Origin: an uncultured Thermoleophilia bacterium
GTDB taxonomy: Bacteria; Actinomycetota; Thermoleophilia; Gaiellales; Gaiellaceae
Direction of reading: 5' to 3'
NCBI GenBank assembly: GCA_963823355.1
Contig: CAWGLG010000004.1
Location: 75,656 to 139,655, forward strand
DNA: 64,000 bases
Under the pieces are notes generated by a model, which was not told the origin of the DNA, made no database searches, and saw nothing but the letters and a program-made list of their open reading frames with translations. The position numbers and the translations under genes are program-made. The first letter of the stretch is position 1. Each line of letters opens with the position of its first letter. This document shows, piece by piece, positions 34,946 to 52,847 of the stretch.

Positions 34946-35197
34946 GCGTCGGACGGTCGCGACCAGTCCATGCCGTGGCTGTGGCGCGCGCCCGTCGCGA
35001 CCCAGGCGATCCCCGCACCCCACCAGACAGGGACGTCCCATCGGAGCAGCCGCGTGAGCCTCGTCGCCATGCGTTGTGATCCTCACGCCGGGCGACGCCG
35101 GCGTCACCGCCGGACGTTGAACCCTAGGCGCAGATCAACGGCGGTGACAGGCTGCTTCATATTGTCGCCGTCTCGTCGGCGCTGGACATGGAGTCGC

Positions 35198-35929
35198 CTA
35201 CGTTGACTGGCGGTCGTGGAAGACCGCCTCGATGTTGTTGGAGTCAGGGTCTGTCAGAAAGGCTCCGTAGTAGCCGGGGTGGTACTCGCGCCGCTCGCCG
35301 GGGGCGCCGTTGGAGGCATAGCCGGCTTCGATGCCAGCCTGGTGGAAGGCGTCGACTGTTTGTTTGTCGGGGGCTTCGAAGGCGAGGTGGAGGTTCTCGG
35401 TGGGCTGTCCTTCGACGATCGAGAAGGTGGCGCCGGAGCCGCGGATCTGGGTGCGGCCCTCGTAGCGCTCGACGGTGTGCGCGACGGTCGAGCAGACGGT
35501 TTCGTAGAAGCGACTTGCAGCGTCGAGGTCGAGGCTGCGGAGCCAGAGGTGGTCGATGACGCCGGAGTGGCGGCGGGGGCCGTCGTTGACGGCTTCGACG
35601 CTGTTGCCGGCGGGATCGACAATGAAGGCGCCGTAGTAGTCGGGTCCGTAGGCGGGCCTGGGGCCGGGCGCCCCGCCGTCTTGGTGGCCGAGCTCGATCA
35701 TCGCCTGCCACCAGTCGTCAACCTGGCGGCGGCCGTCGGCGCGGAAGCCGATATGCAACCGACGTGTCGCCGGCCGCTCGGCGGTGTCTCGGCCGATCGT
35801 GAAGTCGTTCCACTCAACGAATCCTCCACCCTCCACTGGCTCAGGGCCGTCGAGGAGCGCGAGCGTGCGAGCGTAGAAGTCGCGAGCGGCTTCGAAGCCT
35901 GGCAAACGGATCCCGACGTGGTCGATCAC
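35198..35929 (-). CDS. two-domain VOC (glyoxalase/bleomycin resistance/dioxygenase) family protein
   Basis: 243 aa. Duplicated modules IDHVGIRL...YGAFIVDPAGNSVEAV and IDHLWLRS...YGAFLTDPDSNNIEAV. Confidence 0.85.
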   Translation of the reverse strand: MIDHVGIRLPGFEAARDFYARTLALLDGPEPVEGGGFVEWNDFTIGRDTAERPATRRLHIGFRADGRRQVDDWWQAMIELGHQDGGAPGPRPAYGPDYYGAFIVDPAGNSVEAVNDGPRRHSGVIDHLWLRSLDLDAASRFYETVCSTVAHTVERYEGRTQIRGSGATFSIVEGQPTENLHLAFEAPDKQTVDAFHQAGIEAGYASNGAPGERREYHPGYYGAFLTDPDSNNIEAVFHDRQST

Positions 35930-35967
35930 AGGTCGATGCTATCCCGCTGTTGGGTGGCTCTACGCGG

Positions 35968-36229
35968 TGGAGACCCCGAGCGCGGTGCCGAATGCGACCT
36001 CGCCGTACTCGACAGATCCGAGGAGGCTGATCTCGGTCATGTTCTCAGCGACCCATGCGGCAACCGCTGCGCTCCCACTCTCGTGTCGACGACGATCATC
36101 GCGTCGCCGGCACGACCGACGGCGACGTCGGGAGCGTGATGGGTGCTCACTGCGGCTCGTCCTCCCCGTCGCTCAGGGACGACCCGCAGGTGGCGAACAG
36201 TTGCGGATCTCGCTCTCTGCGGTGGACAT
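35968..36229 (-). pseudogene. possible decayed NTF2-like (SnoaL/DUF4440-type) gene remnant
   Basis: Good RBS (GAGAGGA) plus the ATG at 36229 gives MSTAESEIRN, followed soon by a stop. Family-like pieces (LFATCGSSLSDGEDEP; STHHAPDVAV; AAVAAWVAENMTEISLLGSVEYGEVAFG) lie in three different frames. The total length is too short for the family. Confidence 0.25.
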
Positions 36230-36279
36230 CGGGATCGTCCTCTCTAACAGGCAGGCGGGTCGGAACGAACCCTACGAAA

Positions 36280-36299
36280 GATAGTTCCGCGGAACTATC
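36280..36299. promoter_or_regulatory. perfect 20-bp palindrome GATAGTTCCGCGGAACTATC; candidate MarR operator
   Basis: Read directly. It is followed within 50 nt by further ATAGT/ACTAT half-sites (TATAGTGAGAGAGCTATA, GACTAC, GACTAT) and a TATAGT -10-like hexamer at ~36310. It lies ~58 nt upstream of the likely marR start. Confidence 0.6.
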
Positions 36300-36357
36300 T
36301 GCCAAGGTATATAGTGAGAGAGCTATAGCCGACTACCCGCGACTATTCAACGAACTG

Positions 36358-36777
36358 GTGCGGTTCGAGACCGAACTGTGGAACGCCGTCGAAGCGCGCC
36401 TGCGTGCCGAACACGACCTGGCGCTGAGCTGGTTCGAGCCCATGAAGGTGATCGAGCGCACCGAGAACTGCCGGGTGCACGACATCGCCACCGCGTTGTC
36501 GATCACCGTCGGGGGGACGAGCAAGCTCGTCGACCGGATCGAAAACGCCGGATACTGCCGTCGGCGTGCGAATCCCGGCGACCGGCGCTCTTCCATCATC
36601 GAACTCGCCCCGGCAGGTCGTCACGTGCTGACCCCAGCGACCAAGACGTTCACAGACGAACTCGACTTCCGTCTCGGCTCGGTGTTGTCACCGCACTCAC
36701 TCGAACACCTCGTCCGAACGATGGTGGAGCTACGGGCCGCGAACCTCGCCGCCGAATGCCGCGAACGGAGTGCCTAG
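36358..36777 (+). CDS. MarR family transcriptional regulator (start uncertain)
   Basis: wHTH region VHDIATALSITVGGTSKLVDRIENAGYCRRRANPGDRRSSIIELAPAG. There is no ATG; the GTG at 36358 is the first plausible start after the operator. The stop TAG abuts the next gene's ATG. Confidence 0.75.
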   Translation: MRFETELWNAVEARLRAEHDLALSWFEPMKVIERTENCRVHDIATALSITVGGTSKLVDRIENAGYCRRRANPGDRRSSIIELAPAGRHVLTPATKTFTDELDFRLGSVLSPHSLEHLVRTMVELRAANLAAECRERSA

Positions 36778-37758
36778 ATGACCGAGACGATGCGAGCGGT
36801 GGTGCTCGATGCCCCGGGGCCACCTGATGCTCTCACGATCCGTGAGATCCCGATCCCAACGCCGGCAGCGGGCGACGTGCTCATTACGGTGAAAGCGTTT
36901 GGCCTCAACCGGTCCGAGCTTCACACCCGCCTTGGCCTAGCCGTCGGTGTCACGTTCCCCCGTGTTCTTGGCATCGAGGCCACCGGCCTGGTCGCGGCGT
37001 GCCCTGGGGGCGAGTTTGCCGTCGGCCAGCAGGTCGTCGCGATGATGGGCGGTATGGGCAGAGTGTTCGACGGCGGCTACGCCGAGTACACCTCGGTCCC
37101 GGCGAGTCAGGTCATAGCGTTCACCAGCGCCTTGGACTGGGCGATCCTCGGAGCGGTGCCCGAGATGTTGCAGACCTCCTACGGCTCACTGACCGTCGGA
37201 CTCGATGCCCAGCCCGGTCAGTCGATTCTGATCCGTGGCGGCACGTCCTCGATCGGAATGGCGACCGCGGTGCTGGCCAAGCAGCGCGACATGATCGTCT
37301 TCTCCACGACCCGCAACGCCACAAAGGCCGAAGCGCTCCACGACATCGGCGTCGATCACGTGATCATCGACGACGGCAACGTCGCCGCCCAGGTTCGTGC
37401 CGTTGTACCGAATGGCGTCGACACCGCACTCGAGCTGATCGGCACGCCGACGTTGCCTGACACCCTCCGATCCACGCGCGTGCACGGTGTCGTGTGCTTC
37501 ACGGGGATGCTGTCGAACGAATGGACCGTGAGAGACTTCTATCCAATCGAGTACCTCCCGCGAGGAGTACGTCTTACCGCCTATGGCGGCGACTCCGGCG
37601 ACCTACCTCCCGCCGTGCTTCAAGACTTCCTCGATGCCGTGGCCGAAGGGCAGATCAGCGTGCCCGTGCACCGCCGATTCGATCTCAGTGAGATCCAGGA
37701 GGCGCACGCCTACATGGAATCCGGCAGGGCCACCGGCAAGCTCGTCGTAACCGTCTGA
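36778..37758 (+). CDS. zinc-type alcohol dehydrogenase / NADPH:quinone oxidoreductase family protein
   Basis: 326 aa with MRAVVLDAPGPPDALTIREIPIPTPAAGDVLITVKAFGLNRSE and an MDR-superfamily Rossmann motif (LIRGGTSSIGMA). Confidence 0.85.
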   Translation: MTETMRAVVLDAPGPPDALTIREIPIPTPAAGDVLITVKAFGLNRSELHTRLGLAVGVTFPRVLGIEATGLVAACPGGEFAVGQQVVAMMGGMGRVFDGGYAEYTSVPASQVIAFTSALDWAILGAVPEMLQTSYGSLTVGLDAQPGQSILIRGGTSSIGMATAVLAKQRDMIVFSTTRNATKAEALHDIGVDHVIIDDGNVAAQVRAVVPNGVDTALELIGTPTLPDTLRSTRVHGVVCFTGMLSNEWTVRDFYPIEYLPRGVRLTAYGGDSGDLPPAVLQDFLDAVAEGQISVPVHRRFDLSEIQEAHAYMESGRATGKLVVTV

Positions 37759-37807
37759 CACGCCGACAGACGCGCAAAAAGAGCGGCCCATCCCGTCTTC
37801 TCCCGCC

Positions 37808-38149
37808 ATGACGCATCACGACCCGCATGGGCAGGACGCGGTCACAAGAGAGAGGAGCGAGCCCTGCGCCAGACCGTATGAAGTGCCGGCGCCTTGCTAC
37901 GGACGTTGGCGCGGGTTGCCGTCGCGATGGGCGCGGCAAGGCGACGGAGGGTTGGGGCTCGTTGACTTTGCCGTGACCGTGCACATGGATCGCGAGGGCT
38001 TCAACACCTCGGCCGACGTGGAGAAGTGGGCATCCGGGATTCCTGTACCGACGTACGCGCTGGATGACCAGAGCGCCATCAGGGTGACCGACGGACACGT
38101 CGTAGTTGTTTCAGAGGGGAACTGGAGGCTCTTCAACCCAGCCCGGTAG
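37808..38149 (+). CDS. hypothetical protein (weak call; only the C-terminal ~60 aa looks coding)
   Basis: 113-aa ORF in a locally lower-GC stretch. The C-terminal part LVDFAVTVHMDREGFNTSADVEKWASGIPVPTYALDDQSAIRVTDGHVVVVSEGNWRLF has protein-like composition. No family recognised. Confidence 0.25.
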   Translation: MTHHDPHGQDAVTRERSEPCARPYEVPAPCYGRWRGLPSRWARQGDGGLGLVDFAVTVHMDREGFNTSADVEKWASGIPVPTYALDDQSAIRVTDGHVVVVSEGNWRLFNPAR

Positions 38150-38395
38150 AAGCGAGACAGGCAACGAACGCAAGGAGCCGCTCGCATGCGCCAGCGTACT
38201 TACACCCGAGGTGCTGCCGGGCAGCAGTGAAGGCCCGGCCGCTCTACGCCACTGATGCTTCGCCTAGGAGCGTCGGGATTTCGCCTAGACGATTGGCTCG
38301 CTCGACAAGACGGCGCCCCTGCGAATGACCTACGCTTCGCCAGTCAGTAACCGGATCGCCTCGTCTGCGATCGAGAACCGTCGAGGAGCCTCGCA

Positions 38396-39688
38396 GTGTT
38401 CGAGGAACGGCAGTCGATCATTGGCCGGGACGATGAGCTACGGACCTTGGACCGGTTCCTGGGCGCGATCGAGGACGGCCCGGTCGCACTGCTTCTCGAG
38501 GGTGAAGCCGGAATCGGGAAGACGTCGTTGTGGAAGGCGTGCCTGGCCGCGGCTGCGGATCGGTTGTACTGTGTGCTGTCCTGCCGGCCGATCGAGGCGG
38601 AGGTCGAGCTGGCATATTCCGCGCTCGGCGATTTGTTGGGACGCGATCTCGGTGACGCGCTTGGCGAGCTTCCCGAGCCACAGCGCCGTGCTCTCGAGGT
38701 AGCGCTGCTCCTGAGGGAGCCCGAGGGGCAACAGCCTTTGCAGCGCGCGGTCGCTCTCGCCACACTCGGTGTGCTTGTGGTGCTGTCTCGTGAGCGGCCT
38801 TTGCTCGTCGGCATCGACGATGTCCAGTGGCTCGATCCCGCCTCCGAGAGCGTGCTCGCGTTCGTCGCCCGCCGCGTGAGTACAGAGCGAATCGGGGTGT
38901 TCATGGCGAGGCGGACAGAGGCGACGGTCGTGGACGTCCCGCTCGATCTTGCACGGGCACTGCCCGAGGGCCGCTTCGCGCGAGTCCCGATCGGATCACT
39001 CGAGCCGGCGGTGCTCGACCTGCTTCTCGCGGCCCGCCTGGAAGCGCATCCATCCGGTCAGGTGCTCGAGCGCCTGCATGCGCGCTCCGGCGGAAACCCC
39101 TTCTTCGCCCTCGAGATCGCGAGAGCGATGATTGAACGAGGCAGCCTGCTGGAGACGGACGACGAGATCCCGATCCCAGCAAGCCTGCACGATCTGTTGC
39201 GGGAGCGGTTGGAGCGCCTACCGCCACCGGCGCGTGAGGCGGCGGAGATCGTCGCAGCGCTGTCGCGACCGACGGTGGCGCTCGTCGATGCAGTCCGAGG
39301 CGACTCGGTGGCTGCCGTCGAGACAGCGGCCAAGGCGGGAATCCTCGAACTGGACGATGGTCGCCTGCTGTTCTCGCATCCGCTGCTCGCCTCGGTCGCA
39401 TACGCCGAGATCCCGGCGGAGCGGCGACGCAACTTGCACGCTCGCCTAGCCGAGATCCTCGATGATCCCGAAGAACGCGGGCGTCATCTGATGCTGGCGG
39501 CGGAAGGCCCTGACCTCTCCGTCGCAGCCGCGCTCGACGAAGCCGCCACACGGGCCCGGGCACGAGGGGCGCCCGGGTCGGCCGCGGACCTGTGGGAGCA
39601 GGCCCGCGTCCTCACACCCACGGTCGCAGGGAGTGAGGCCCGCCGACGAGCTGTGGAGGCGGCAGAGCGACGCTTCGACGCCGGCGAT
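38396..39688 (+). CDS. LAL/LuxR-type large ATP-binding regulator, N-terminal part only (3' end cut at the compositional seam)
   Basis: GTG start after GAGGAG. Walker A LLLEGEAGIGKTSLW, Walker B LLVGIDDVQWLD and helical repeats. No C-terminal HTH. The ORF ends at a TGA spanning the seam (39689-39691). Confidence 0.75.
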
Positions 39689-39693
39689 TGAAT
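39683..39693. other. compositional / phylogenetic breakpoint (probable contig join or chimeric assembly point)
   Basis: GC-rich actinobacterial-type coding sequence ends and AT-richer sequence begins. Both flanking ORFs lose their C-terminal parts here. Confidence 0.8.
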
Positions 39694-40300
39694 CAAGGGT
39701 GTCAATTTGGGCCGGTTGCCGACTTTCGGAAACAGTCCCTTTTTTGCCAGGCGGGTGAGCTTTAAAATGTCTCTGTGATCTCCCGGGCCATAAACCATCG
39801 AGAACCTGACAATAACGGCAGGCAATCCCATTTCCTTAAACAACCGCAGCACTTCATTTTCAGCCCGGAGTTTACTGCGACCATAGGGATGATGAGGGAA
39901 GCAATTGCTTTTTTCTGTTGCCGGGCTGTCCGGACAGATGCCCATGGCGGCAACCGTACTACAGTGAATAATTTTTTTTACGTTCGCTGCCAGTGCCGTT
40001 TCCATCATGTTGATGGTGCCCCTTACGTTGACCGCTTCGAACAAGGACTCGCTGACGGAAAAGTTACTCATATGACCCAGTGTCGCCATATGAACGAGGA
40101 CATCCACACCATCGGCAATGCCGGTTAACGTATCTTTATCCGTGACATCGCCGGTAACAAATTCGACGCCGAGATCTTTAAGCGGAGCAGTGTTACTGCC
40201 AGAGCGGCACTAGGCATCGACAGTGATGACCCAAAGCCGTTAACCTTTGAATTAGATAGGGTCCGATAAATCCGGTTGCACCGGTTATTAAATAATTCAC
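39688..40300 (-). CDS. NAD-dependent epimerase/dehydratase, 3'-truncated at the seam and carrying a +1 frame change near 40206
   Basis: GTG at 40300 gives VNYLITGATGFIGPYLIQRLTALGHHCRCLV, then a stop. The +1 frame continues RSGSNTAPLKDLGVEFVTGDVTDKDTLTGIADGVDVLVHMATL...YGRSKLRAE... until the sequence becomes GC-rich nonsense after ...KLTPLIQ. Confidence 0.75.
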
Positions 40301-40306: not shown

Positions 40307-41027
40307 TTAATCCTTTTTCCCGCAAGTCGTCAGGTGAGGTGGAAAGAAGGTACGCACAGTATAACCCTGGGTATTAAGGATCTTCTCTACTGCATGATAA
40401 GCGGGTTGGTTGTCCCGCTTATGATAGGACGCAACGGCAACATGCGGGTGATACTGCTTAAGTGTATTTAAAGAACCCTGCAGGGCCTCAATTTCTGAGC
40501 CTTCAATATCCATTTTAACCAAATCCAGACGTTTTAACGCTAATTCATTCATTAAATCATCTATCGTGATACATTTTATGGGTATATAATTATTATTTTG
40601 AATCGTTGGATTTGCGGATTTTTCAATTTTACAGGAAATGGTGTTTGAAAAAATTTTCAACAAAAATATTCCGGTATCGTTCCATACGCCTTTGTTAATG
40701 GCAACAATATTTTTTCTTCTCAAGCGGTTCAGTCCGGTTTTGTAAAATATTAAATGATTTTTCAAATGGTTCAAGCGCAACAACAAGCCCATCGCCCCCC
40801 ACAAGTCTTGAAAATAGGATTGCACAGTTACCTATGTTTGCACCACAATCAATAATTACATCCCCTTTTTTGGGTAAATAGCATTTTAAATATGATGAAT
40901 ATGAACAGGGGATCATTTTAATCAGCCAGAGCGGGAAATAGCTTAAAGCAACTTCGAATAAAATATTTTTAAAGTTGACCGGCAGAAAGTTTAAAACTTT
41001 TGCGGTAATATTAACAAATTTAAGCAT
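40307..41027 (-). CDS. FkbM family methyltransferase with an apparent +1 frame change near 40738-40741
   Basis: The 5' ORF contains VIIDCGANIGNCAILFS...VVALEPFEKSFNILQ. The +1 frame continues TGLNRLRRKNIVAINKGVWND...LDLVKMDIEGSEIEAL. The switch lies in a T/A run. Confidence 0.75.
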
Positions 41028-41078: not shown

Positions 41079-41772
41079 TTATGAAAAATTAATCAATCGT
41101 TTCCAGGTATAATAGAACCAGGCACCATATTCAGCCAGTACCCAACGTATTTGACGGCCCTCCTTCCACCAGGCATTGGGGTTGTATGGATCCGTTTTAG
41201 CCGGAATCGTACAAACCGACAACTCGGTTTTTAAATATTTTTTTCCAAATAAAGCCGGCTCGGCGGCTGTGATATTGGCTTGTTGTGATAATAATCCGTT
41301 TGAGCCCTTTACTGACGAGTTCATTTCCGACTGCCTCGGCTTCACTGATGGTATCATAGGCGTCCTCGGCACTGATCTGTATGACGCTACTGCGGGGGAC
41401 GCCATAAAGCGATAAGATCCGAAGTGAATTTTCATACCAGGGGCAGCAGGCTTCAAACCCTTTTTTTTCCAGCTCACGCAGAACGTCGGTTTTACGGTTT
41501 CCATTAATCACGATCTTTTGCGCAAACCCCCTGTTGTAAAGGGAAGCCGCTTCGATGAGCCGCGGGTAATATTCCACGCCCGAGTTCAGCACCACGATGG
41601 CATCGGAGCGAACCGGGTTTTCATCATTTACAATAAAGCTTCCAATGGCTGTTAAGATAGGGGCGTAAAACAGATAAACAGCAACTGCCGCAACAAGGAT
41701 AAAACCCGTAATCCTTAATAATCTTTGATAATTATTTTTAGATTGATGAAATCTTTGGTTTGCAATCTTCAT
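41079..41772 (-). CDS. DUF218 (YdcF/ElyC-like) protein with an apparent +1 frame change near 41228-41232
   Basis: N-terminal TM segment plus SDAIVVLNSG...IIITTSQYHSRRAGFIWKKIFK in one frame. TELSVCTIPAKTDPYNPNAWWKEGRQIRWVLAEYGAWFYY follows in the +1 frame. The switch lies in an A5 run. Confidence 0.7.
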
Positions 41773-41774
41773 GA

Positions 41775-42876
41775 TCAACCTCGAAGCATCTCTTTCAGAA
41801 CCCGAAACAGGGAGGGACCATGCAATAACATATTGGAATAGGTTTGATTGGCAAGCGGACAGCTGCAGGTCCTATTATAGATAGCGGTGCGAACGGCATC
41901 CGGCCTGGGGACTTTTCCACAACTTTTGAAAGTCATAATCAAACTCGCGCAGGTTTCCCATCGACTTGTCATAGCCAAGCGTACAGCAGGCCCAGACATC
42001 ACCATAGGGTGATAGATGCGCATTTGAAATTCCGGCGTAGCAGGGGATGACTTGTCGATTTTCCTTTAATATCCTGATAGCCAGCGCATAGTAAACCAGT
42101 CGAAATGCACTGGTAATGCGATGAAAGAACAATCGGTTTTTCATCTGGGCCCTGATGTGCCGGATGAATTTTTCGGTTGCCCGTTCATAGGCCTCAGCAG
42201 TGGGCGTAATGCTATTTTCCCGGTTGAACATTTCCGAGCGCTGTTCGGCAATTTCATTTCGATAGCTGTCCGTACCGAGTGTGGTAACAAAAGCAGCAAT
42301 CTCTTCGATGTCGTTAATATTCCAATTTGATATAACGGTGCCCAACTCCACGTGGAAATTGGGAAATTCCGGCTGCAGTGACTTTAAACGCTGAAACAGC
42401 GACATGACTTTTTCAAAATTGCCTTTCACACCCCGGATCTCATCGTGCTTGTCGCCGATATGATCCAGGCTGGGTTTTACCGTTAAATGAATCGCAGGAA
42501 AGTTGGTCTTTAAAAAGTTTAAAATTTCATTAATTTTTTTATCGATCCGTTCGATAGCGATGGCATTTGTGGGAATATGAATGATGCCGGGTGAAAGGTA
42601 CCGGCAGGCGAGCTTGATGATGTCGGTGATATCCGGTCTTAAAAAAGGTTCGCCGCCGCTGATGTTAAAAACAAAAATATGCCCCATGGAACGAAAGATT
42701 TTTTCAATTTCAGCGAGGGTGAGTTCATCGTTCCGTTTTTCAGGATTGTTTTCGTATAAACTCCAGATATTACACGTGCGACAGCGGGACTGGCAGATAT
42801 TGGTAACCGAAAACGTCAGATTCAGCGGCATCCCGGGGGGTATCATTTTCAGGCGCGCCAGGCGATATCGAATCAT
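41775..42876 (-). CDS. radical SAM protein with SPASM-like C-terminal Cys cluster; apparent +1 frame change near 41900-41905
   Basis: CQSRCRTC (CX3CX2C), GGEPFL and CYAGISNAHLSPYGDVWACC. After ...FQKLWKSPQA the +1 frame reads DAVRTAIYNRTCSCPLANQTYSNMLL...LRG*. Start uncertain: ATG at 42876 or GTG at 42906. Confidence 0.75.
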
Positions 42877-42911
42877 TTTCGGTAACACTTCAATGAGATA
42901 GCCCACTGCTG

Positions 42912-44091
42912 TTATGCCTCGCTGAGGGTGTCTGAAGAATCCAGTAATTTCCGATAAACAGACATGGTTTTTGCGATGATGGCAGGCCACGTCAGTTTCC
43001 GGGCGATGCTGTCGGCACCGGCGGCCATGCCTTCAAGCCGGCCAGGTGTATTCAGGCATTCGACCAGTACTTTCGCCAAAGCGTCCGAATCTTTTGGCGG
43101 AACAATGCAACGCTGGTCGGCAACCAGATCGGGCAGTCCGCCCACATGGGTCACTATCAGGGGCTTTCGAAAAGAAACCGCACTGGCGCCGACGCCGCTT
43201 TGGCTGTCAAAACGATGATAGGGGAGAATGACAATATCGGCAGCCGTAAAAAATTTATACACCTCACCTGAAGGGATGTATTCCGGATGGATTGAAACTG
43301 CCTGCCGGATATTGAGGTCATCAATTAAATTTGAGTAAGGCTCCCAGCTTTCCCATAATTTCCCGGCAATCAACAGACGGGAATCAGGTATGTGCTTCAG
43401 AACCTTTGCAAATGCTCTCAGGGCGGTGTCGATTCCCTTATAAGATCGAATCGCTCCGAATAAGAGGATGACTTTGCTGCCGGGGTTAAACCCCATCGCA
43501 GCGCGGATAGACTCACGGTCAATTTTCAGTTTAGTATGAAAATCAAGCGTACCATGGGGAATCAGGCTTATGTTTTCGGCTGAAATTCTATAGGTTGCAA
43601 TCAACTGCTGTACATTGACAGCGGTATGGACAATGAAGTGGTCACCCAATTTAAAAATGAGACTGGAAATTTTCTGGTAAAGGAATGATTTTTCGTGGGG
43701 TTTGGTATTGTGCACCGTAAAGACAACGGGTTTGCCCCGGACCTTGAATGCCCCGCAGACAGCCAGATAGATTGGGAAAAGGGGGAGGCTCCACCACTGG
43801 GCATGCAGTAATTCGGCTTTAGTTGAATAACCCCGCCTCTAACCAGCTGATCGGATTATACCAGGCCAGATGACGGCTGACATTCAAATGGGGATGCCCA
43901 AAGCAGGGGAAAGTATCATCCTCATTTAAACCGCCTCCCGGATAGGCAAATGCCGGGTATAGTTTTTTAAAAGAGATAAATTCAACGGCAGTCTTATCTG
44001 CCATTGCCAGAGCCAGCTCGAGGCAGTAACTGCTGAGCCCCCGCAGGGGCGGCAAGGTACCCAGAATGGCAATTTTTTCTGGTTGTTTCAA
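42912..44091 (-). CDS. GT4-type glycosyltransferase with an apparent +1 frame change near 43823
   Basis: The N-terminal 90-aa ORF (KIAILGTLPPLRGLSSYCLELA...NPISWLEAGLF) is followed in the +1 frame by TKAELLHAQWWSLPLFPIYL...VHNTKPHE...LLFGAIRSYKGID...PYHRFDSQSGV. Confidence 0.75.
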
Positions 44092-44093
44092 AA

Positions 44094-44591
44094 TCAGTTG
44101 GCGGCTCTTTCCTTAGCCAATTGCTCCGCGCTCATGGTCCAGAAGGGTGTTCCGTCTTTGGTAAGGCGTACTTTTAAGGCAAAATGATCTCCTTTTGTTA
44201 TCTTTGAGGCCATGAAAACCTCTTTTCCGTTAATTTCAGCCCACACGCCCCTGACTTTGACCCTGTCCCCCTTTTTGACTCCAACACGCCTGATGTTCAG
44301 AAACCAGGAAGGGGCAACATGCACCAGAACTTTTTCTGTTTTTGATTCACTCACAATCAGCGCGACACCGGGAGACATTCCGGGGATCGGAACGAGCTCC
44401 ATGATTTCTTCAACTCTCCCCTTAAAAGAATCCAGTTCGTTTGCTTTATAAAATTTGTTGTAAGGACTGCCAAGCTCCCAACCACCCGTTCCGGTTTTTT
44501 CCTGGGCAAATCCCGTTGACCCGAGAACAAGTAAAAAGATGACCACTAAAGGAAGCATCAGCATCGTTATTTTGCTAAAAGATTTAAACAT
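44094..44591 (-). CDS. secreted hypothetical protein
   Basis: ATG at 44591 after AGGAGG. Signal-peptide-like MFKSFSKITMLMLPLVVIFLLVLGSTGFAQE. No family recognised. Confidence 0.6.
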   Translation of the reverse strand: MFKSFSKITMLMLPLVVIFLLVLGSTGFAQEKTGTGGWELGSPYNKFYKANELDSFKGRVEEIMELVPIPGMSPGVALIVSESKTEKVLVHVAPSWFLNIRRVGVKKGDRVKVRGVWAEINGKEVFMASKITKGDHFALKVRLTKDGTPFWTMSAEQLAKERAAN

Positions 44592-44827
44592 GACCCCTCC
44601 TGTAAAGATAAAATTATTCATTGTCAGTTATAATGATCTATTATAGCCAAAAACAAATTAACTGCAAGTCCAATCCTACCAATCCGCCGGTTGCATGAGC
44701 GGGCTTTCTTCATAGAACCCGTCACTTAAAACCGGGTCAAAGCAGCCTAACAATTAGTTATTATGGTAAAAATAGGTATGCATAGTGAATTTGTCAATTG
44801 AAAACAAATTAGACCTCTTTAGAAAAA

Positions 44828-45625
44828 CTAAAGCCTTTCAAATAACTGTTTCATTGCCGAGAGATATGCCGTTGAACCACGCATAAAGATATCATTATGA
44901 TTGGCTTCCGGGATTTTGAGAATCGTTTTTTCTCCCGCGGGGCAGGCGGAATAAAGCGCTTGTGCATCCGAAAACGGAATAATGTGGTCGTATTCGGCAT
45001 GGATAATGAGGGTCGGTTTTTTGTATTTTTGGATTTTTTCCAGATTGCGAAATCCTTTTTTTTCAGTGAATCCGAATCGTTCCAACTGAATACCCATCAG
45101 TCGCAACAGCGGGCCGGAATAGGCAAATCCGCTTTCAACGATGAGTGCGTCGATTAAATCCGGATAAGTCGCGGCCAGTTCCAGGGCCGAGGCGCTGCCC
45201 AGGGACCTCCCCATCACAACAAGTTTTCCCGACCAGTTATTTTTTTTCAGCCAGCCCTTAACAAAATCAAACAGGACATGGCAGTCCCGCATCATGGCGG
45301 TGATGGTGGGGGAGCCGGTTGAAAGACCGTAACCGCGATAATCGACCGCTAACAAGTTAATGCCCATGCGGTTGTAGATGGAACCCATATCATCATAATC
45401 GGCAACGATTTCACCGTTTCCATGAAAAAACAATATATTGGGGGCGGTGGGGGTTTCCATGTGAAAACGGGCGCCGATAACGACATCCCTGTCGACCGGT
45501 ATTAAAAGTTTTTGTGACTGCTGATTCGTCGGAGAAGCTCCCCGGTCAACCCTGGGATGAAAAATCGCCGACAGAACTTCCGGCCGGTCAAGTTCTGAAA
45601 AATTAATCTGTTCTATATCAATCAT
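44828..45625 (-). CDS. alpha/beta hydrolase
   Basis: 265 aa with FFHGNGE, the nucleophile elbow GRSLGS and a C-terminal His region (PEANHND). Confidence 0.8.
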   Translation of the reverse strand: MIDIEQINFSELDRPEVLSAIFHPRVDRGASPTNQQSQKLLIPVDRDVVIGARFHMETPTAPNILFFHGNGEIVADYDDMGSIYNRMGINLLAVDYRGYGLSTGSPTITAMMRDCHVLFDFVKGWLKKNNWSGKLVVMGRSLGSASALELAATYPDLIDALIVESGFAYSGPLLRLMGIQLERFGFTEKKGFRNLEKIQKYKKPTLIIHAEYDHIIPFSDAQALYSACPAGEKTILKIPEANHNDIFMRGSTAYLSAMKQLFERL

Positions 45626-45639
45626 TTCACATCACCTTG

Positions 45640-45678
45640 GGAGAGCTATGCAAAAGGCCCTCTTTTGCATAACTCTCC
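45640..45678. repeat. 17-bp-stem hairpin between fxsA and the hydrolase gene (terminator or REP-like)
   Basis: GGAGAGCTATGCAAAAG / CTTTTGCATAACTCTCC, 16 of 17 positions paired with a 5-nt loop. A second 7-bp palindrome, TAGATCG-GTT-CGATCTA, sits at 45692-45708. Confidence 0.4.
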
Positions 45679-45705
45679 ATAGATTTGCTGTTAGATCGGT
45701 TCGAT

Positions 45706-46101
45706 CTATGAAAAAAAGGTTATATTCATGTTCTGGTTTTTGACCCAGCGTTCAAGCCGGAGCTTGATGAATTGTTTAAAGATACGGCGGGTCTGCGGAA
45801 AAAGAATGAGGAGTCCTGCCGCATCGGTTATGAAGCCGGGTGTCAGCAGCACAATGCCGGCGATCAAAATCAGGAGCGCGTCAATCAGGTCGTCTGTGGG
45901 CATCAAGCCCTGCTGCAGACTGGCCCGGACCCGCAGCAAGGTCTGCATCCCCTGCATCCGGGCGAGGTAGGCGCCGGTAAATCCGGTCAGCATAACCAAT
46001 AAAACCGCATTCAAGGCGCCGATAACCGCGCCAACCTTGATGAGAAGGTATATCTCGGCAACAGGAATCAGTGTAAATGCCAGGAAAAGTTTAAACAGCA
46101 T
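45706..46101 (-). CDS. fxsA: FxsA family membrane protein
   Basis: 131 aa: MLFKLFLAFTLIPVAEIYLLIKVG...LLTPGFITDAAGLLILFP. Confidence 0.85.
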   Translation of the reverse strand: MLFKLFLAFTLIPVAEIYLLIKVGAVIGALNAVLLVMLTGFTGAYLARMQGMQTLLRVRASLQQGLMPTDDLIDALLILIAGIVLLTPGFITDAAGLLILFPQTRRIFKQFIKLRLERWVKNQNMNITFFS

Positions 46102-46170
46102 ATAGCTCCTCTGCTATCTCTCCGGGTAAAAACCATGAAATTTTATATTCCAGCATAGAAAACATCGTCT

Positions 46171-46366
46171 TCAGAGACTGTGCCACAATTAAAAAAAACC
46201 GAGTCCCAAGATTTTTTGTCATTCCGGGCTTGACCCGGAATCCATAATATTTTCAAGTCCATATGATCCTGGATGCCGGATCAAGTCCGGCATGACGTGA
46301 AGAAAAAGAAACCATTTTTACAATTACGACACAGTCTCTCAGGGCCAGGTCAGAGAATTGTGGCGC
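46171..46366. repeat. compound palindromic (MITE/REP-like) element
   Basis: Outer inverted repeats AGAGACTGTG (46172-81) / CACAGTCTCT (46330-39) and CCACAATT (46182-89) / AATTGTGG (46356-63). Inside are two inverted copies of a 29-nt hairpin module (46217-45 and 46269-97). Confidence 0.6.
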
Positions 46367-46388
46367 TGCCGTATGAAGTGCAAAAGGT

Positions 46389-46556
46389 CTAAATCCGAAG
46401 TACGAAATTCAAAATCCGAAACAATAACAAATGACAAAAATTCAAATGATCCAACCAAGCAGGGTTCAGTTCGCGGCTATTGGTTGTGTTTTAGCCATTC
46501 ACGTATTCGATATTCGGATTTGTTTCGAATTTAAAGATTCGAATTTCGGATTTAAC
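46389..46556. repeat. imperfect long inverted repeat built from AAATCCGAA-type units
   Basis: Left arm CTAAATCCGAAGTACGAAATTCAAAATCCGAAACAA, right arm TTGTTTCGAATTTAAAGATTCGAATTTCGGATTTAAC. The ends (TAAATCCGAA, CGAAACAA) are complementary; the middles only partly so. Confidence 0.5.
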
Positions 46557-46588
46557 ATGACCAGAAGCAAATAATCCCCTTTTAGGGT

Positions 46589-47410
46589 TTAAATCAAAGC
46601 CCGGTTCTCAGGGCCCACGATCGGATTGCGCAGTATTCCGATCCCATCTATCACAGACTCCAGCATGTCCCCGGGTTTTAGATATACCGCGGGATCCCGG
46701 GTGTATCCGACACCGCTGGGGGTTCCAGTCAAGATGACAGTTCCCGGCAGGAGGGTCATATCGGTGGAAAGATAACTGATGAGTTCGGCCACCGGGAATA
46801 TCATATCGGATGTATGGGCATCCTGCATGCTGTTGCCGTTGAGGATACATTTCAGCTGCAAAGACTGGGGGTCCGGGATTTCATCAGGGGTAACCAGGAT
46901 TGGACCCAGCGGGCAGAAGGTGTCGAAACTCTTCCCGCGGATCCATTGGCCCGAACCGGCGTGTGCCTGCCATCGTCTTGCTGAAATATCGTTTGCAATG
47001 GTATACCCCAGCACATATTGCAATGCGCTCTCTTTGGATACATTTTTGGCCGCTTTGCCGATTACAACCGCCAATTCCACTTCGTAATCGACTTGAGGGG
47101 GATCCATGCAAGTGGCCGGTATAACGACAGGGTCGTCGGGGTGGGTCAGCGTAGCGGGGTTTTTCATGAATAAAGCCGGATATTGAGGAATTTTAAAACC
47201 GGTTTCCTCCGCATGCTGCCGGTAGTTCAGCCCGATGCAAAGGATTGCCTTTGGTTCCAGGGGCGCCAGCAACTTCTTTACCCGCACCTGACGTCCGGTT
47301 TCCTTGGGGCTGTCAAACAAACGTCCTTCCAGCAAATCGGCAATCCCTCCCCGATAATTTTGCCCGAGGCAGATCTGATCTTTTTCATCTAAAAATCGAA
47401 CAATTCGCAT
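46589..47410 (-). CDS. fumarylacetoacetate hydrolase (FAH) family protein
   Basis: 273 aa with CIGLNYRQHAEE, DYEVELAVVIGK and GTPSGVG. Confidence 0.85.
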   Translation of the reverse strand: MRIVRFLDEKDQICLGQNYRGGIADLLEGRLFDSPKETGRQVRVKKLLAPLEPKAILCIGLNYRQHAEETGFKIPQYPALFMKNPATLTHPDDPVVIPATCMDPPQVDYEVELAVVIGKAAKNVSKESALQYVLGYTIANDISARRWQAHAGSGQWIRGKSFDTFCPLGPILVTPDEIPDPQSLQLKCILNGNSMQDAHTSDMIFPVAELISYLSTDMTLLPGTVILTGTPSGVGYTRDPAVYLKPGDMLESVIDGIGILRNPIVGPENRALI

Positions 47411-47432
47411 GGGGTTGTCCTTTCAAGAGGAT

Positions 47433-48671
47433 TTACAAACGATAAACGGTTGGCTTTTCTTCAGCGTCGATATCTATTCCAATGGTGTCCCCGGTTTTAA
47501 ACCCGATTCTAAGGATCTCCTTGATGACAAAGTCATGTCGGTCCGCATACCAATAGACGGACCACAGCGGATTTCGCACCGTATCGACACCGTAGGCTGA
47601 ATGAGTACCCAGATTAAATCGGATTCTATCTTTGGCGATAAGGGTATCAGCCTCGGAAAGAAAATAGTCTCTTTTATACAAATTGTTGTGAAGTGCTCTG
47701 GAAAGCTGTTTTTGAATATCCGGCGTGTCATCAAGATAATGATTTGCGATCTGGAAAAGATCTTCCGGCACCTGAATCGAGATGCCTAAAATGCCAAAGC
47801 GTTCATTGCGCAATGCAAAGGTTTCCATCTCATCATCATATGACGAAATTATTCCGAGAATATCATCGATGGTAGTGCCCGGTCCTTCGCTTCTCAGAAC
47901 CAGGTCTTCGCATTTCGAGATAATATCGAGATAGACGGATTTGCTGTTCATTACAAATATCGGCCGTTCACGGTAACTTCGTCTTTTTCGGATTCTGCGA
48001 AGACCGTCCAGCCGAATGGACCTTTCACTTTCCTTTTGTATCAGCGTGTCGATATGAGAAATGTCCTTGGCTTGAACGACAAAAATTTCACCTTCCTCAG
48101 AAATAATATATTCAATTTCACACCGGAAACCCAGATAGCTCTGAATATCTTCCGATATCTGCAACAGTTTACGGTCATGGGGTGTTTGAGTGACATAGGG
48201 ATCTTTCTGAACTTGCTGCGTTCGGCTAAAACTGTAACCGAATTCCCACTGTTTCCCCAATTTTTTGGTCATTACGTTGATGCCGTCAATGAACGGCATC
48301 ACGATGACACCCATTTCGTCCAGGTTGATATCCGGGGCGTTATTGAACTTTTGCTGCCTGAGGATCGTCAGCCTTCTTGAATTCTTCGCACTGGTAATTA
48401 TCCGTTTTCGGGCATATTTAATCCCGCCGACATCGGCATATGTTTCCAGCGAGTCGAATGTCCCCCCTTTGTAAAATTCTTCCTGTGGGTGACCGCTTCG
48501 TGCAATTACCTTAAAACTTTCGCGGTGATTGCTTATAAAAGATTCTAAGGCCTTAAAATTTTCACTCCTGAAATCGTCCGCAGGGACATAAATAAAGTCC
48601 GGTACATTAAAGTTTCCTTTTTTCAGTCTATCTAGGAGTCTGGCTTTTTCCGGCAACGCAGGTTTATTCAT
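47433..48671 (-). CDS. hypothetical protein with N-terminal PEP/pyruvate-binding (PPDK_N, ATP-grasp-like) domain
   Basis: 412 aa. The N-terminal ~200 aa follows the PPDK_N pattern (NVPDFIYVPADDF; VIARSGHPQEEFYKGGTFDSL; MGVIVMPFIDGINVM; IFVVQAKDI). The C-terminal ~200 aa was not recognised. Confidence 0.6.
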   Translation of the reverse strand: MNKPALPEKARLLDRLKKGNFNVPDFIYVPADDFRSENFKALESFISNHRESFKVIARSGHPQEEFYKGGTFDSLETYADVGGIKYARKRIITSAKNSRRLTILRQQKFNNAPDINLDEMGVIVMPFIDGINVMTKKLGKQWEFGYSFSRTQQVQKDPYVTQTPHDRKLLQISEDIQSYLGFRCEIEYIISEEGEIFVVQAKDISHIDTLIQKESERSIRLDGLRRIRKRRSYRERPIFVMNSKSVYLDIISKCEDLVLRSEGPGTTIDDILGIISSYDDEMETFALRNERFGILGISIQVPEDLFQIANHYLDDTPDIQKQLSRALHNNLYKRDYFLSEADTLIAKDRIRFNLGTHSAYGVDTVRNPLWSVYWYADRHDFVIKEILRIGFKTGDTIGIDIDAEEKPTVYRL

Positions 48672-48793
48672 TTTAACATATTGTTATCATTATTTTTTTT
48701 ATTTGCATAAGACTCAAAACTATCGCAAATATAATACACAACCTGGGGGCTGTCATCCCGGCATGTCGCCTGGTACATCTGAAAATACCGGTT

Positions 48794-49687
48794 TCAACCG
48801 GCGCCTTTTCGTTTCATATATATCTCGAGGCGTCCGATGGTCAGCGAAAGGCTCAATGTCAGGGACAGATAGAGTAGTGAAATCGTAATCCAGACTTCAA
48901 ATGTCAGATAGGTGGCCGACATCAGCTCGATCCCCTGAAACGTTAGTTCCTGAATTGAAATAACCGAAACAATGGCTGAATCCTTGATGGTTGAAATAAA
49001 CTGTCCTGCCAGGGGGGGGAGGATCCGCTGGACAGCCTGGGGAAAAATGATGTGGCGCAATTGCTGCTTCCTCGAAAAGCCGAGGGCCGATGATACCTCC
49101 CACTGACCTTTTTCAATGGATTGGATGCCGGCTCGGACAATTTCCGTGATATATGCCCCTTCAAAAACAGCCAGGGTGACGAGGGCTGACAGAAATGCGG
49201 GAAACTGTGATGCCGGCGCAAAGAGAAAAGCTAAAATGGTTTTGGTGCTTTCCGACCGGGTATGAATAAATTCTTCCACGCTGAGTACCGGCATGATCTG
49301 ATCGCTGATAAAAAAATAAAATATAAAAATGAGAACCAGCGGGGGAAGGTTCCGGATCAATTCCACATAGGTACCTCCGACCAGGCGCCTGAAAAGGCGG
49401 CGACTCAGCCGGAACAACCCCATCATGGTACCCAGCAGTGTTGCCAGAATAGTTCCCCAGAAACTCAGGCGGATGGTCGTAAAAAAACCCTGCATCAGCA
49501 AATTCGGCAGCCAGCTTTTTTGCTGCGGATCATACCGGAAAAGATACTGGGGTATGGTTGACCAATTCCATTTATAATTGAGCCCGACATTAATGCGGTA
49601 AAGCAGGTACAGCCCAATCCCCACGAAGAGAATGGCCAGCACGGCGTCCAGAGGGGTCAAGGCTTTTTTTGTTTTTAAAGGCGGCAT
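48794..49687 (-). CDS. amino acid ABC transporter permease (HisM/GlnP-type)
   Basis: 297 aa, polytopic, with an EAA-loop-type region (EVSSALGFSRKQQLRHIIFPQAV). Confidence 0.85.
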   Translation of the reverse strand: MPPLKTKKALTPLDAVLAILFVGIGLYLLYRINVGLNYKWNWSTIPQYLFRYDPQQKSWLPNLLMQGFFTTIRLSFWGTILATLLGTMMGLFRLSRRLFRRLVGGTYVELIRNLPPLVLIFIFYFFISDQIMPVLSVEEFIHTRSESTKTILAFLFAPASQFPAFLSALVTLAVFEGAYITEIVRAGIQSIEKGQWEVSSALGFSRKQQLRHIIFPQAVQRILPPLAGQFISTIKDSAIVSVISIQELTFQGIELMSATYLTFEVWITISLLYLSLTLSLSLTIGRLEIYMKRKGAG

Positions 49688-50523
49688 TATTGGATCTGGT
49701 TTTCCCAGTCCCGGGTTTCGAACCAGTAATGCTTGCGCTCCTGCAGCCAGCCGTCGGCCCTGACGAACGTTATCCAGTTGTTCAGATAGTTAATGGTGTC
49801 GAAATCCCCTTTTCTGACGGCAAACCCGATGGGCTCTTTGGTAAAGGTTTCCGCTAACGGCAGAAAGAGCTTGTCGGGATATTTCAGCGCCCATTCAGCC
49901 GGTTTGGGGGCAGAGCCGACAACCGCATGCGCTTTGCCGTTGAGCAGTTCCTGGTAGGTCTGGGCCTCGTCGTCGAAAAAACGCAGCTGGGCCTTTGGCA
50001 TGAATTTCTGTGCGGCCGGAACCGCGGTAGACCCCAGCCGGATGGAAAGGATCACGTCCGGTCTGTTAAAATCGTTTAAGCTGTTGAACCCGGCGGCCAG
50101 GCTTTTATGGGCCACCATTGACATGCCGGTATAATCATAAGGGATACTGAAATTGACCTTCAGATTTCGGCTCGGTAAAATTCCCATACCCCCGATAATG
50201 ACATCAAACTTGCCGGTCAGCAGCGACGGAATGATTCCGGCCCATTTGGTTGGAACAAATTGAACCGAAACGCCCATATCTTTCGCCAAACGCGTGGCCA
50301 CATCGATTTCAAAACCGATCAGTTTGCCGGTTTTATCTTTCATGGCCCAGGGAACAAATGTGGACATGCCGACTTTTAAGGAGCCGCGTTTGAGCGCCTG
50401 CTCAATGGTACTTTCAGCGGTTAGTTGTTGCTGGGTTTCTCCGGTAAAGGCCACGTCGGCAAGTCCAATCATGAGTAGCGTGATCCATACTGTTTGGATG
50501 ACGGACAATCTCATTAGTTTCAT
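49687..50523 (-). CDS. amino acid ABC transporter substrate-binding protein (family 3)
   Basis: ATG at 50523 after AAGGAG. Signal peptide, then LKVGMSTFVPWAMKD...GFEIDVA typical of family-3 SBPs. Confidence 0.85.
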   Translation of the reverse strand: MKLMRLSVIQTVWITLLMIGLADVAFTGETQQQLTAESTIEQALKRGSLKVGMSTFVPWAMKDKTGKLIGFEIDVATRLAKDMGVSVQFVPTKWAGIIPSLLTGKFDVIIGGMGILPSRNLKVNFSIPYDYTGMSMVAHKSLAAGFNSLNDFNRPDVILSIRLGSTAVPAAQKFMPKAQLRFFDDEAQTYQELLNGKAHAVVGSAPKPAEWALKYPDKLFLPLAETFTKEPIGFAVRKGDFDTINYLNNWITFVRADGWLQERKHYWFETRDWENQIQ

Positions 50524-50574
50524 CTTCGGTCTCCTTTCATTTTGTTTGCGATCCATTAAGGTATACCTTTTTAG

Positions 50575-51405
50575 TTATTGGTTCAGTTTGAGGCGATTTG
50601 CCATGAAGCTGACCATCAGCGATAAGAATGTCGTAATCAGCAGATAGACAGCGGCAATGGAAAACCAGATTTCAAAGGTCAAAAAGGTTTCGGCAATGAT
50701 CGCCTGCCCCCGCATGGTCAGGTCGTAGATTGCAATGGTGCTGACCAAGGCGGAATCTTTGATTAGCGAGATGGCCTGCCCGGTCAGGGGCGGCAGTATC
50801 CACCGGATTGCTTGGGGAAGAATAATATGTCTGTAAGTCAGATAGTTGCCGAGTCCCAGGCTAAAAGCCGCTTCCCATTGGCCTTTTGAAATGGATACAA
50901 TACCGGCCCGGAAAATTTCCGAAGCATAAGCGCCCTCAAAAAGGCTTAACGCCAATACCGCAGCCGTAAAGCGATCGATATCAAGGACCGGACCCAGAAC
51001 GAAGTAGATAAAAAAAAGTTGCACCAGAAGGGGGGTATTACGAATCAGTTCAATGTACCCTCTGGCAAGGGAGCGCGCCATAAAAGAGTTCGACAAGCGG
51101 AATAACGCAGCGATCAGGCCAAATGAAAAAGAAAGCAGCAGACTGACGCCGGTGATTTTAAATGTCACCATCAGCCCCATGATCAGCGGTCCGGCGACGA
51201 TTCCGTCCTCTTTGAAATAAAAAAAATATTGAAGGACACGATACCACTGCCAGTTGTAACCCAGCCTGTCGGTGCCGCGCGCTAAAAACCAGATGACAGC
51301 CCCCATCAACAGTACGAATTTGATGATGTCAAACAGGTTCACTAGAACAGCGCGTCTTGGCCTGGTAAAAACGTTTTTCAAAACTTTAGGATATAGTACC
51401 GGCAT
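50575..51405 (-). CDS. amino acid ABC transporter permease (HisM/GlnP-type)
   Basis: 276 aa with an EAA-type loop (EAAFSLGLGNYLTYRHIILPQAI). Confidence 0.85.
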   Translation of the reverse strand: MPVLYPKVLKNVFTRPRRAVLVNLFDIIKFVLLMGAVIWFLARGTDRLGYNWQWYRVLQYFFYFKEDGIVAGPLIMGLMVTFKITGVSLLLSFSFGLIAALFRLSNSFMARSLARGYIELIRNTPLLVQLFFIYFVLGPVLDIDRFTAAVLALSLFEGAYASEIFRAGIVSISKGQWEAAFSLGLGNYLTYRHIILPQAIRWILPPLTGQAISLIKDSALVSTIAIYDLTMRGQAIIAETFLTFEIWFSIAAVYLLITTFLSLMVSFMANRLKLNQ

Positions 51406-51468
51406 ATTCTCGCTAAAAGTGGATAGTTCTTAAATAAGGTCTCTTGACGCTCCGCACCTCTCCCCCAA

Positions 51469-52833
51469 TTATTCCTTACAAACACCTTTGGCAAAGTAAA
51501 AACTGCTGAAATCATTAGAGGAGACAAAGCCCATCTCCATGTTGACGTACCAAGCGGCGGTAAAGGAGCGTCTGTCGCAGCTCCACAGCCATTTCTGTTT
51601 TTGATCGAATACCGGTTGGATGCAAAGATCTTCACCATGCGGCGTTTGAGAGACCAGCGTCAACAATTCATCTATCGTAGGAAGTCGCCAGTTGTCATGC
51701 CCGGCAAAATTTTTGCTATTCAAGGTTTTGACATACGAACCGGCGTTATCCCAGTTGACGGGAAATATCGAACCGGCCGTTTGCCAAATCAGGCCGCTCG
51801 ACAGGTCCTGAACCGTTTCGTCAGATCGTATTTCAAATTTGTTTTTTACAAAGCATAAGGGGCGCCAGAGGCTGTCAAGCCTAAATGTAGTCATTGAATT
51901 ATCAGGTGCAACCTTGACGGGGCGACTTCTCACGGGCAGTGTTCGGGTTTCATCGTCACAACTATTCGGTATTTCAGCATTTTCGTTTTTTGATAGAGGT
52001 AGGGCGCATATCTTTTCCTTTTTTTTGTGCCAGTCTGATTCGAGGGTTGCAAGGGCCGCAAGCATTTCAGCAGCGTTGCTAAAACGGTGACGACTTCGGG
52101 GTGCAATGGCTTTCAGAATAAAAGAATCCCATTTTTCATCAAGGTCCGGGTTGTACTTGCCGGTACATTCGGGGGTGTCCTGTGGCAGCCGGCCGGTCAG
52201 CATCCGGTAGAGCATTATCCCGACAGAATAAATGTCGGCGCTGAAATCGACGGCGTCAGGGTCTTCTTCCTGCTCAGGGGCGGCGTACCATGGAGAGCCG
52301 ACTTTAAGATTCGGGGGCCCCTCAAATGATTCACCCCTTAACTTGTGCAGGCCAAAATCGCAAATTTTAACGTGATCCTGTTCGGTGATCAGAATATTAT
52401 ACGGCTTGATGTCACGATGGATAATGTCGGCATGATGCAGACAAGCCAGGCCCTCAAGCGTCTGGCGGATATAATGAATGGCTTTTTCGGTTTTGATGAT
52501 ACGGCTTTCCATTTCGGTTTGATAGGTTTCGCCGATGATGATCCCCAGGTTGTTGCAATAGTAATCCATTGTGTAAAAGAGCTTGCCGTCAGCTTCACCA
52601 AAATCCCATACGTCTACAACATTAGGATGCCGCAGACATGCCATCGTTGCAGCTTCGGTCATGAACATCGCCCGGATCTTTTCAGTTCCGATCAGATCCA
52701 GCAGCAGGGGGTTGGGATCCAGCAGCTTTAAGGCGACGATTTTTCCAATAACCGGGATTTCGACCTTGAAGACTTTGCTCATGCCGCCGCGACCGAGTAA
52801 CCCGCTGACCCTGTATTTATCAATATGTTTCAT
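51469..52833 (-). CDS. Ser/Thr protein kinase fused to a C-terminal DUF1566 (Lcl C-terminal-like) domain
   Basis: Kinase motifs GRGGMSKVFK, VALK, HRDIKPYNILI, DFGL and APE. The C-terminal domain has GLIWQ...WRLPTIDELLTL...WLWS.... Confidence 0.85.
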   Translation of the reverse strand: MKHIDKYRVSGLLGRGGMSKVFKVEIPVIGKIVALKLLDPNPLLLDLIGTEKIRAMFMTEAATMACLRHPNVVDVWDFGEADGKLFYTMDYYCNNLGIIIGETYQTEMESRIIKTEKAIHYIRQTLEGLACLHHADIIHRDIKPYNILITEQDHVKICDFGLHKLRGESFEGPPNLKVGSPWYAAPEQEEDPDAVDFSADIYSVGIMLYRMLTGRLPQDTPECTGKYNPDLDEKWDSFILKAIAPRSRHRFSNAAEMLAALATLESDWHKKKEKICALPLSKNENAEIPNSCDDETRTLPVRSRPVKVAPDNSMTTFRLDSLWRPLCFVKNKFEIRSDETVQDLSSGLIWQTAGSIFPVNWDNAGSYVKTLNSKNFAGHDNWRLPTIDELLTLVSQTPHGEDLCIQPVFDQKQKWLWSCDRRSFTAAWYVNMEMGFVSSNDFSSFYFAKGVCKE

Positions 52834-52847
52834 TTGATTGCCGACCG

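Follow-up and report, generated by a model that had tools for sequence, protein, structure and literature searches.

Organization of the locus

The window is the whole stretch of 64,000 nucleotides analyzed here. It consists of two blocks of DNA that meet at a blunt seam, and two genes, one on either side, stop there: a regulator gene on the plus strand and an epimerase gene on the minus strand. The features needed in what follows are listed with the evidence for each in parentheses.

1 to 39,687, no strand: left block, a chromosome segment of Thermoleophilia/Gaiellaceae type, GC 0.70 (names of cluster mates, uniform tetranucleotide signature)
38,330 to 39,687, no strand: stretch 100% identical to the terminal 1,358 bp of CAVOVG010000014.1 (249,245 to 250,602, reverse strand) (alignment)
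38,396 to 39,691, plus strand: truncated LAL-type regulator gene, 431 aa, with the AAA_16 domain only (domain search, entry in a protein collection)
39,687 to 39,688, no strand: seam, blunt and lacking shared bases, a spacer or an adapter
39,688 to 64,000, no strand: right block, a chromosome segment of Thermodesulfobacteriota type, GC 0.49 (homologs, domains, tetranucleotides)
39,688 to 40,300, minus strand: truncated NAD-dependent sugar epimerase/dehydratase gene, residues 1 to 203 of about 328 (homolog alignment, Pfam)
40,206 to 40,207, minus strand: 1-bp insertion (an extra C) that frameshifts the epimerase gene (frame alignment, Pfam)
40,307 to 41,027, minus strand: FkbM-type methyltransferase gene, interrupted by a single-base error (1 bp) within the A-run at 40,738 to 40,741 (domains)
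41,085 to 41,778, minus strand: DUF218 gene with a frameshift near 41,225 to 41,250, beside T5 and T7 runs (the 221-aa protein of a relative aligns in two frames)
41,875 to 42,990, minus strand: radical SAM/SPASM gene of a polysaccharide cluster (domain; syntenic in Ga0451564_006622)
42,501 to 55,487, minus strand: stretch matching the independent JGI metagenome contig Ga0484963_00002364 at 99.74% identity, with 33 mismatches and 1 gap (alignment)
42,912 to 44,091, minus strand: GT4 glycosyltransferase gene, broken in two where 1 bp is inserted at 43,825 (comparison with Ga0484963_00002364)

Switch of composition at a single point

The GC content is 0.702 over positions 1 to 39,687 and 0.488 over positions 39,688 to 64,000; counted per kilobase, it lies between 0.66 and 0.74 as far as 39 kb and between 0.40 and 0.57 beyond 40 kb. 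The change point was located with a maximum-likelihood two-segment GC model compared with a single segment. Over the whole window two segments gain 1,452 lnL units over one, with the change point at 39,686 (39,681 to 39,691 within 2 lnL units), and further splits within the left or the right half gain 48 lnL units at best. Tetranucleotide usage, normalized for GC, gives correlations of 0.91 to 0.95 among parts of the left half and of 0.87 to 0.91 among parts of the right half, but of only -0.06 to 0.11 between left and right. Homopolymers of at least 6 bases number eight in the left half, all of them of G or C, while the right half has many A/T runs. Composition and k-mer signature thus switch at one point between flanks that are each uniform, as in a chimeric contig. 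A sharp passage from GC-rich to AT-rich DNA at about 39,688, with A/T homopolymers to its right, had been claimed by the first-pass annotation; the change-point span encloses the seam at 39,687/39,688, and A/T runs of six or more bases are frequent only to the right of it. The sliding GC and tetranucleotide profiles that it had also proposed were run, and show halves that are internally uniform and mutually uncorrelated. The tetranucleotide and GC models reveal no amelioration of the right half towards the composition of the left, and a GC content of 0.70 is not regained in the 24.3 kb between the seam and the end of the window.

The final ca. 4.6 kb of the left half (35,100 to 39,687) has a GC content of 0.64 to 0.66, below the 0.70 to 0.74 of the remaining left half, and the best internal split of that half falls at 35,113. 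The tetranucleotide signature of this stretch is still of the left type. It contains a glyoxalase-like gene, MarR, Zn-ADH, an unannotated gap of 640 bp, and the regulator.

The left flank and its intact continuation

The left block carries housekeeping genes (fakA-like, rsmB, priA, metK, der, aroA, tyrA, and genes for a class II DAHP synthase, a sulfate permease, MarR, and Zn-ADH). In a look-up of 90%-identity protein clusters, the cluster mates of left-hand proteins bore the names Thermoleophilia or Gaiella. Among GTDB-representative records, the 45-mer immediately left of the seam matches one only, CAVOVG010000014.1, described as ‘MAG: uncultured Thermoleophilia bacterium isolate MFD09779.bin.2.29’, contig_59897, 250,602 bp. 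Our comparison with contig_59897 covered its last 2,602 bp. There, the 100% identity with the window ends precisely at 39,687; past that position contig_59897 remains in frame (...RRFDAGE-IDRARELL...) with a GC content of 0.68 and an open frame of at least 845 codons. A second contig, JBTDFG010000040.1 from a Gaiellaceae MAG, aligns at the DNA level with positions 38,314 to 39,687 of the window at 85% identity, again ending at 39,687, whereas its alignment with contig_59897 extends about 1.17 kb beyond the seam position. Since both contigs run past 39,687, the natural continuation of the left flank is the rest of the LAL-type regulator gene, uninterrupted in either of them, as expected where one flank of a chimeric contig has an intact counterpart elsewhere. 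A GC3 frame plot of 33.7 to 39.7 kb gave no sign of frameshifts on the left side.

Large ATP-binding regulators of the LuxR family (LAL) are built from an N-terminal AAA_16 P-loop domain, central TPR repeats and a C-terminal LuxR/GerE helix-turn-helix (HTH). Of these parts, AAA_16 is seen in the copy in the window, the TPR repeats occur only in the intact copy on contig_59897, and GerE is found in relatives. The window gene is cut after residue 430, and its last codon and stop are supplied by the join: the codon that straddles the seam reads GAT (Asp) in place of the GAG of the intact gene, and the TGA at 39,689 to 39,691 is entirely right-hand DNA, not a stop lying across the seam as had been stated. 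The intact regulator of contig_59897, with its TPR repeats, is at least 845 aa long; through the seam position it runs colinear with a 744-aa homolog terminating in a GerE/LuxR HTH. Its closest relative (81% protein identity) lies on JBTDFG010000040.1, where it is annotated as two pieces of 581 aa and 355 aa, the second comprising TPR and GerE. The GerE HTH is thus present in two relatives, one of them on JBTDFG010000040.1, contig_59897 having been compared over 2.6 kb only. From these relatives we infer that the window copy has lost an HTH, as first proposed, but the loss is larger than was supposed, since more than half of the length is gone, including all of the TPR repeats.

Two side observations concern the left flank. 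Breaks shortly upstream of the regulator occur in two independent assemblies, 66 bp upstream in contig_59897 and 152 bp upstream in JBTDFG010000040.1, whose homology to the window ceases at 38,314; strain-variable sequence or a repeat at this place may recurrently break assemblies. Further to the left, the 90%-identity cluster of the prephenate dehydrogenase (21,608 to 22,699) also includes proteins named EPSP synthase. The EPSP synthase and prephenate dehydrogenase genes overlap by 4 bp in the window (20,319 to 22,699), so that this cluster is probably bridged by fused or mis-called genes elsewhere.

The right flank as chromosome of Thermodesulfobacteriota type

The right block contains a polysaccharide cluster, ABC and TRAP transporters, a Ser/Thr kinase, a homoserine dehydrogenase, and an aspartate aminotransferase. 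From the two metabolic enzymes, the transporters, and the kinase we conclude that the right half is ordinary chromosome rather than the cargo of an island. The aspartate aminotransferase (55,585 to 56,772) has JGI matches at 97% and 95%, and is 93% identical to a protein of a MAG named ‘Thermodesulfobacteriota bacterium’ and 73% identical to one of Desulfobacteraceae, while the named relatives of the epimerase belong to Desulfobacterales or Deltaproteobacteria. Assigned by similarity, as had been suggested, the left half goes with a Thermoleophilia contig at 100% and the right half with Thermodesulfobacteriota/Desulfobacterales names. This agrees with the initial impression of an actinobacterial gene set meeting one of Gram-negative type, now specified as Thermoleophilia/Gaiellaceae-like and Thermodesulfobacteriota-like. 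The two flanks, as those of a chimeric contig, derive from organisms that differ at the phylum level.

The 12,986-bp contig Ga0484963_00002364, which is nearly identical to the right block, stops matching at 42,501, 2.8 kb short of the seam. A more distant relative with about 70% identity, JGI contig Ga0451564_006622, has the same order of GT4, radical SAM/SPASM, DUF218, and epimerase genes; there the epimerase is complete, with 298 aa, and more polysaccharide genes come after it. Synteny in this ca. 70%-identity relative is the one line of evidence for the natural continuation of the right flank; a continuation from the same species past the epimerase was found neither by the epimerase search, nor with a 49-mer in JGI contigs, nor in Ga0484963_00002364.

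The Thermodesulfobacteriota polysaccharide cluster (41,875 to 44,621 in the window) is conserved in its radical SAM/SPASM, DUF218, and GT4 genes and in a small protein with a MamS/MamX domain (44,094 to 44,621); related clusters (locus L003, Ga0451564_006622) substitute a B12-binding radical SAM and a GT2 gene. The Ser/Thr protein kinase (51,469 to 52,833) sits between a metallophosphoesterase and an operon for an amino-acid ABC transporter, and its copy in the JGI contig has a C-terminal domain of Lcl_C type.

Extended SDR epimerases/dehydratases have a GxxGxxG Rossmann motif, a catalytic YxxxK, and a C-terminal substrate-binding domain. The window gene shares the two motifs, found as GATGFIG and YGRSK once its own 1-bp frameshift, which the first-pass annotation did not mention, is corrected; the corrected protein matches positions 2 to 190 of the 240 of the Pfam Epimerase profile. 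It lacks the C-terminal domain. Compared with complete homologs of about 328 residues, some 124 residues (about 38% of the protein), which include the substrate-binding part, are missing, rather than roughly the last quarter as estimated at first. Homolog conservation is strong through ...KLTPLI, after which the alignment confirms what had been noticed, namely that the frame runs on as GC-rich nonsense. Identity to homologs is 55 to 58% over the whole alignment and about 70% over the retained part, the best identity in the search being 74%. In this form the gene is a non-functional fragment.

Frameshifts close to the seam

The epimerase is one of four genes that 1-bp indels have frameshifted in the first 4.2 kb right of the seam, against none in the following 11.6 kb. 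Homopolymer density is equal in the two parts, and a clustering of this kind has a p of about 0.005 if errors are uniform. In the FkbM gene, deleting one A restores the Pfam match over positions 1 to 172 of the 173 of the profile. The GT4 gene is intact (392 aa) in Ga0484963_00002364, an independent contig that confirms the extra base at 43,825 as an insertion and as the sole indel in 13 kb. Homopolymer runs contain or adjoin at least two of the four frameshifts. All four resemble consensus errors of long reads rather than pseudogenes. On the other side of the seam the last 1,358 bp are free of errors, being identical to contig_59897. The cluster suggests thin read support right of the seam, and consensus quality, hence read depth, would fall towards the seam on the right side only. 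Being confined to the neighborhood of the seam, the frameshifts point to a thin contig end or to a join made by few reads, for decay would spread over the whole block.

Absence of mobile-element signatures

There is no tRNA in the window, no integrase or transposase among the ORFs neighboring the seam, and no flanking repeat around it beyond 12- to 38-mers at chance level. ORF, tRNA, and repeat searches therefore bear out the earlier remark that an IS element, integrase, tRNA, and target-site duplication are absent from the seam. None of the marks of a genomic island (an integrase or recombinase, a tRNA or att site, flanking direct repeats) accompanies the seam; the genes are cut at arbitrary positions with no signature of recombination or of a mobile element, as in chimeric contigs. 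No ONT adapter was detected in the whole window at up to 3 mismatches. Neither the 30-mer that crosses the seam nor the 49-mer to its right occurs in JGI metagenome contigs; within this collection the junction is thus not recovered independently. A plasmid origin was considered and dropped, as megablast of each half against PLSDB returned no match.

Origin of the join

Four left-hand and five right-hand proteins are each recorded, at NCBI and ENA, on exactly one contig, 142,259 bp in length. The protein collection also has an entry for the 431-aa truncated regulator, which ends in ...RRFDAGD, and places it on that same contig. With both halves and the truncated protein call located there, the join was not made by the cutting of the window.

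We consider it about 90% probable that the seam is an artefact in the deposited 142,259-bp contig, Thermoleophilia and Thermodesulfobacteriota DNA having been joined in sequencing or assembly. The continuation of the left-hand gene elsewhere, the JGI match of the right half, and the lack of recombination signs support this reading, which the first-pass annotation had also preferred. It had named a chimeric assembly or the concatenated contigs of a bin; the former stands, while separate contigs lying side by side fit less well with a single deposited contig. The truncated regulator, the truncated epimerase, and the TGA stop are then by-products of the join without biological function.

Chimeric contigs and MAGs that join different genomes are addressed by tools of the GUNC type, and long-read assemblers can follow chimeric reads. 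The present case shares with them the abrupt switch of composition and taxonomy, ORFs cut on both sides, the absence of mobile elements, and an intact alternative path in another contig, as well as its type of source, a Nanopore-only metaFlye assembly; among the sequence-level features compared we found no differences. In a Nanopore ligation chimera, two unrelated fragments are joined during end-repair and adapter ligation. The seam resembles such chimeras in its blunt join without microhomology or adapter and in its arbitrary intragenic positions, and the overlap of 1,358 bp on the left would be compatible with one arm of a single read. It differs in that a single-read cause is here presumed, and that a graph error or a post-assembly merge would give the same consensus.

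The likeliest route would begin in library preparation, with two fragments ligated bluntly into a chimeric Nanopore read in which about 1.4 kb of Thermoleophilia DNA was joined to Thermodesulfobacteriota DNA. Such a read could have made the assembly graph branch at 39,687, and from this point the long-read metagenome assembler would have put out the left flank and the foreign DNA as one contig. The true Thermoleophilia path would have been left over as contig_59897, with the 1,358 bp common to both contigs still at its terminus. The identity of 100%, together with the fact that contig_59897 ends 1,358 bp from the seam, would suggest that the two contigs come from the same assembly. The protein database with the window's proteins does not contain the intact regulator of contig_59897, and the records of the two contigs may therefore differ. 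The overlap could also come from the pasting of two finished contigs, and something other than the seam may account for the contig end at 38,330, because JBTDFG010000040.1 also ends just upstream of the regulator. The metagenomes behind the MFD MAGs were sequenced by Nanopore only; metaFlye was used for assembly and Medaka for a single round of polishing (PMC12313526). The available text of the MFD paper describes bin-level contamination filters and no contig-level check for chimeras (PMC12313526).

Among the alternatives, the pasting of two finished contigs, one of Thermoleophilia ending at 39,687 and one of Thermodesulfobacteriota starting at 39,688, by scaffolding, a merging tool or the submitter and without a spacer, is unlikely, though it accounts for part of the evidence. 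Overlaps such as that with the end of contig_59897 are common for neighboring contigs of one genome, and the right-side frameshifts increase towards the seam as they would at a thinly covered contig end. The deposited record, however, has no N spacer, the 431-aa gene is called straight across the seam, and the MFD workflow, as far as the available text sets it out, mentions no merging step (PMC12313526). It takes the assembly graph to distinguish pasting from a mis-join by the assembler; both are artefacts.

We hold it to be very improbable that the junction is real and very recent. At least 24 kb of Thermodesulfobacteriota chromosome would then have entered the Thermoleophilia regulator by illegitimate recombination or end-joining, with the wild-type allele (contig_59897) coexisting in the same habitat. 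Such an event would agree with a seam that is internal to a deposited contig and with the existence of both an ‘empty’ and a ‘joined’ allele in public data, and the frameshifted genes near the seam could be read as decay. The frameshifts are nevertheless clustered at the seam and not spread across the block, and the right half, which shows zero amelioration, matches free-standing environmental DNA at 99.74% identity and carries core housekeeping genes. Moreover, integrase, tRNA, repeats, and microhomology are lacking, both genes are cut in the middle of their ORFs, host DNA does not resume within 24.3 kb, and the junction was not found in JGI metagenome contigs. With genomic islands and inter-phylum transfers the seam does share a block of foreign composition that lies directly against host DNA and breaks a gene of the host. 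It differs from them in having no integrase, tRNA or att repeats, in its core-metabolism cargo, in the absence of amelioration, in the cutting of the donor-side gene as well, in the lack of a second boundary within 24 kb, and in the near-identity of the block to independent donor-type DNA. Such a junction would be extraordinary, whereas chimeric long reads and mis-joins between genomes are common.

That the seam arose in extracting the 64-kb window from a file of several records, two of which came to lie side by side, is an idea raised by the end of contig_59897 at 38,330. Exact look-ups in a contig index would agree with it, as left-hand proteins gave no record there while a right-hand protein did; but these negatives (for the ADH, the radical SAM protein, EPSP synthase, and the truncated regulator) do not signify absence, several window proteins being present in the cluster collection, and may stem from the choice of start codon. 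The idea can be dismissed, as left and right proteins share the deposited 142,259-bp contig and the 431-aa protein using the stop just past the seam was deposited on it.

Implications

As an artefactual join, the seam is biologically unimportant; it is a quality flag on a public contig that mixes two phyla. The diagnosis can be made free of reads, when another public contig or a relative agrees with one flank up to the very seam and remains intact beyond it. The affected 142-kb contig belongs to a public genome that is apparently used as a reference. Contigs of mixed phyla can cause false calls of horizontal transfer, inflated pangenomes, and distorted estimates of taxonomy and contamination, and they can mislead models trained on genome windows.
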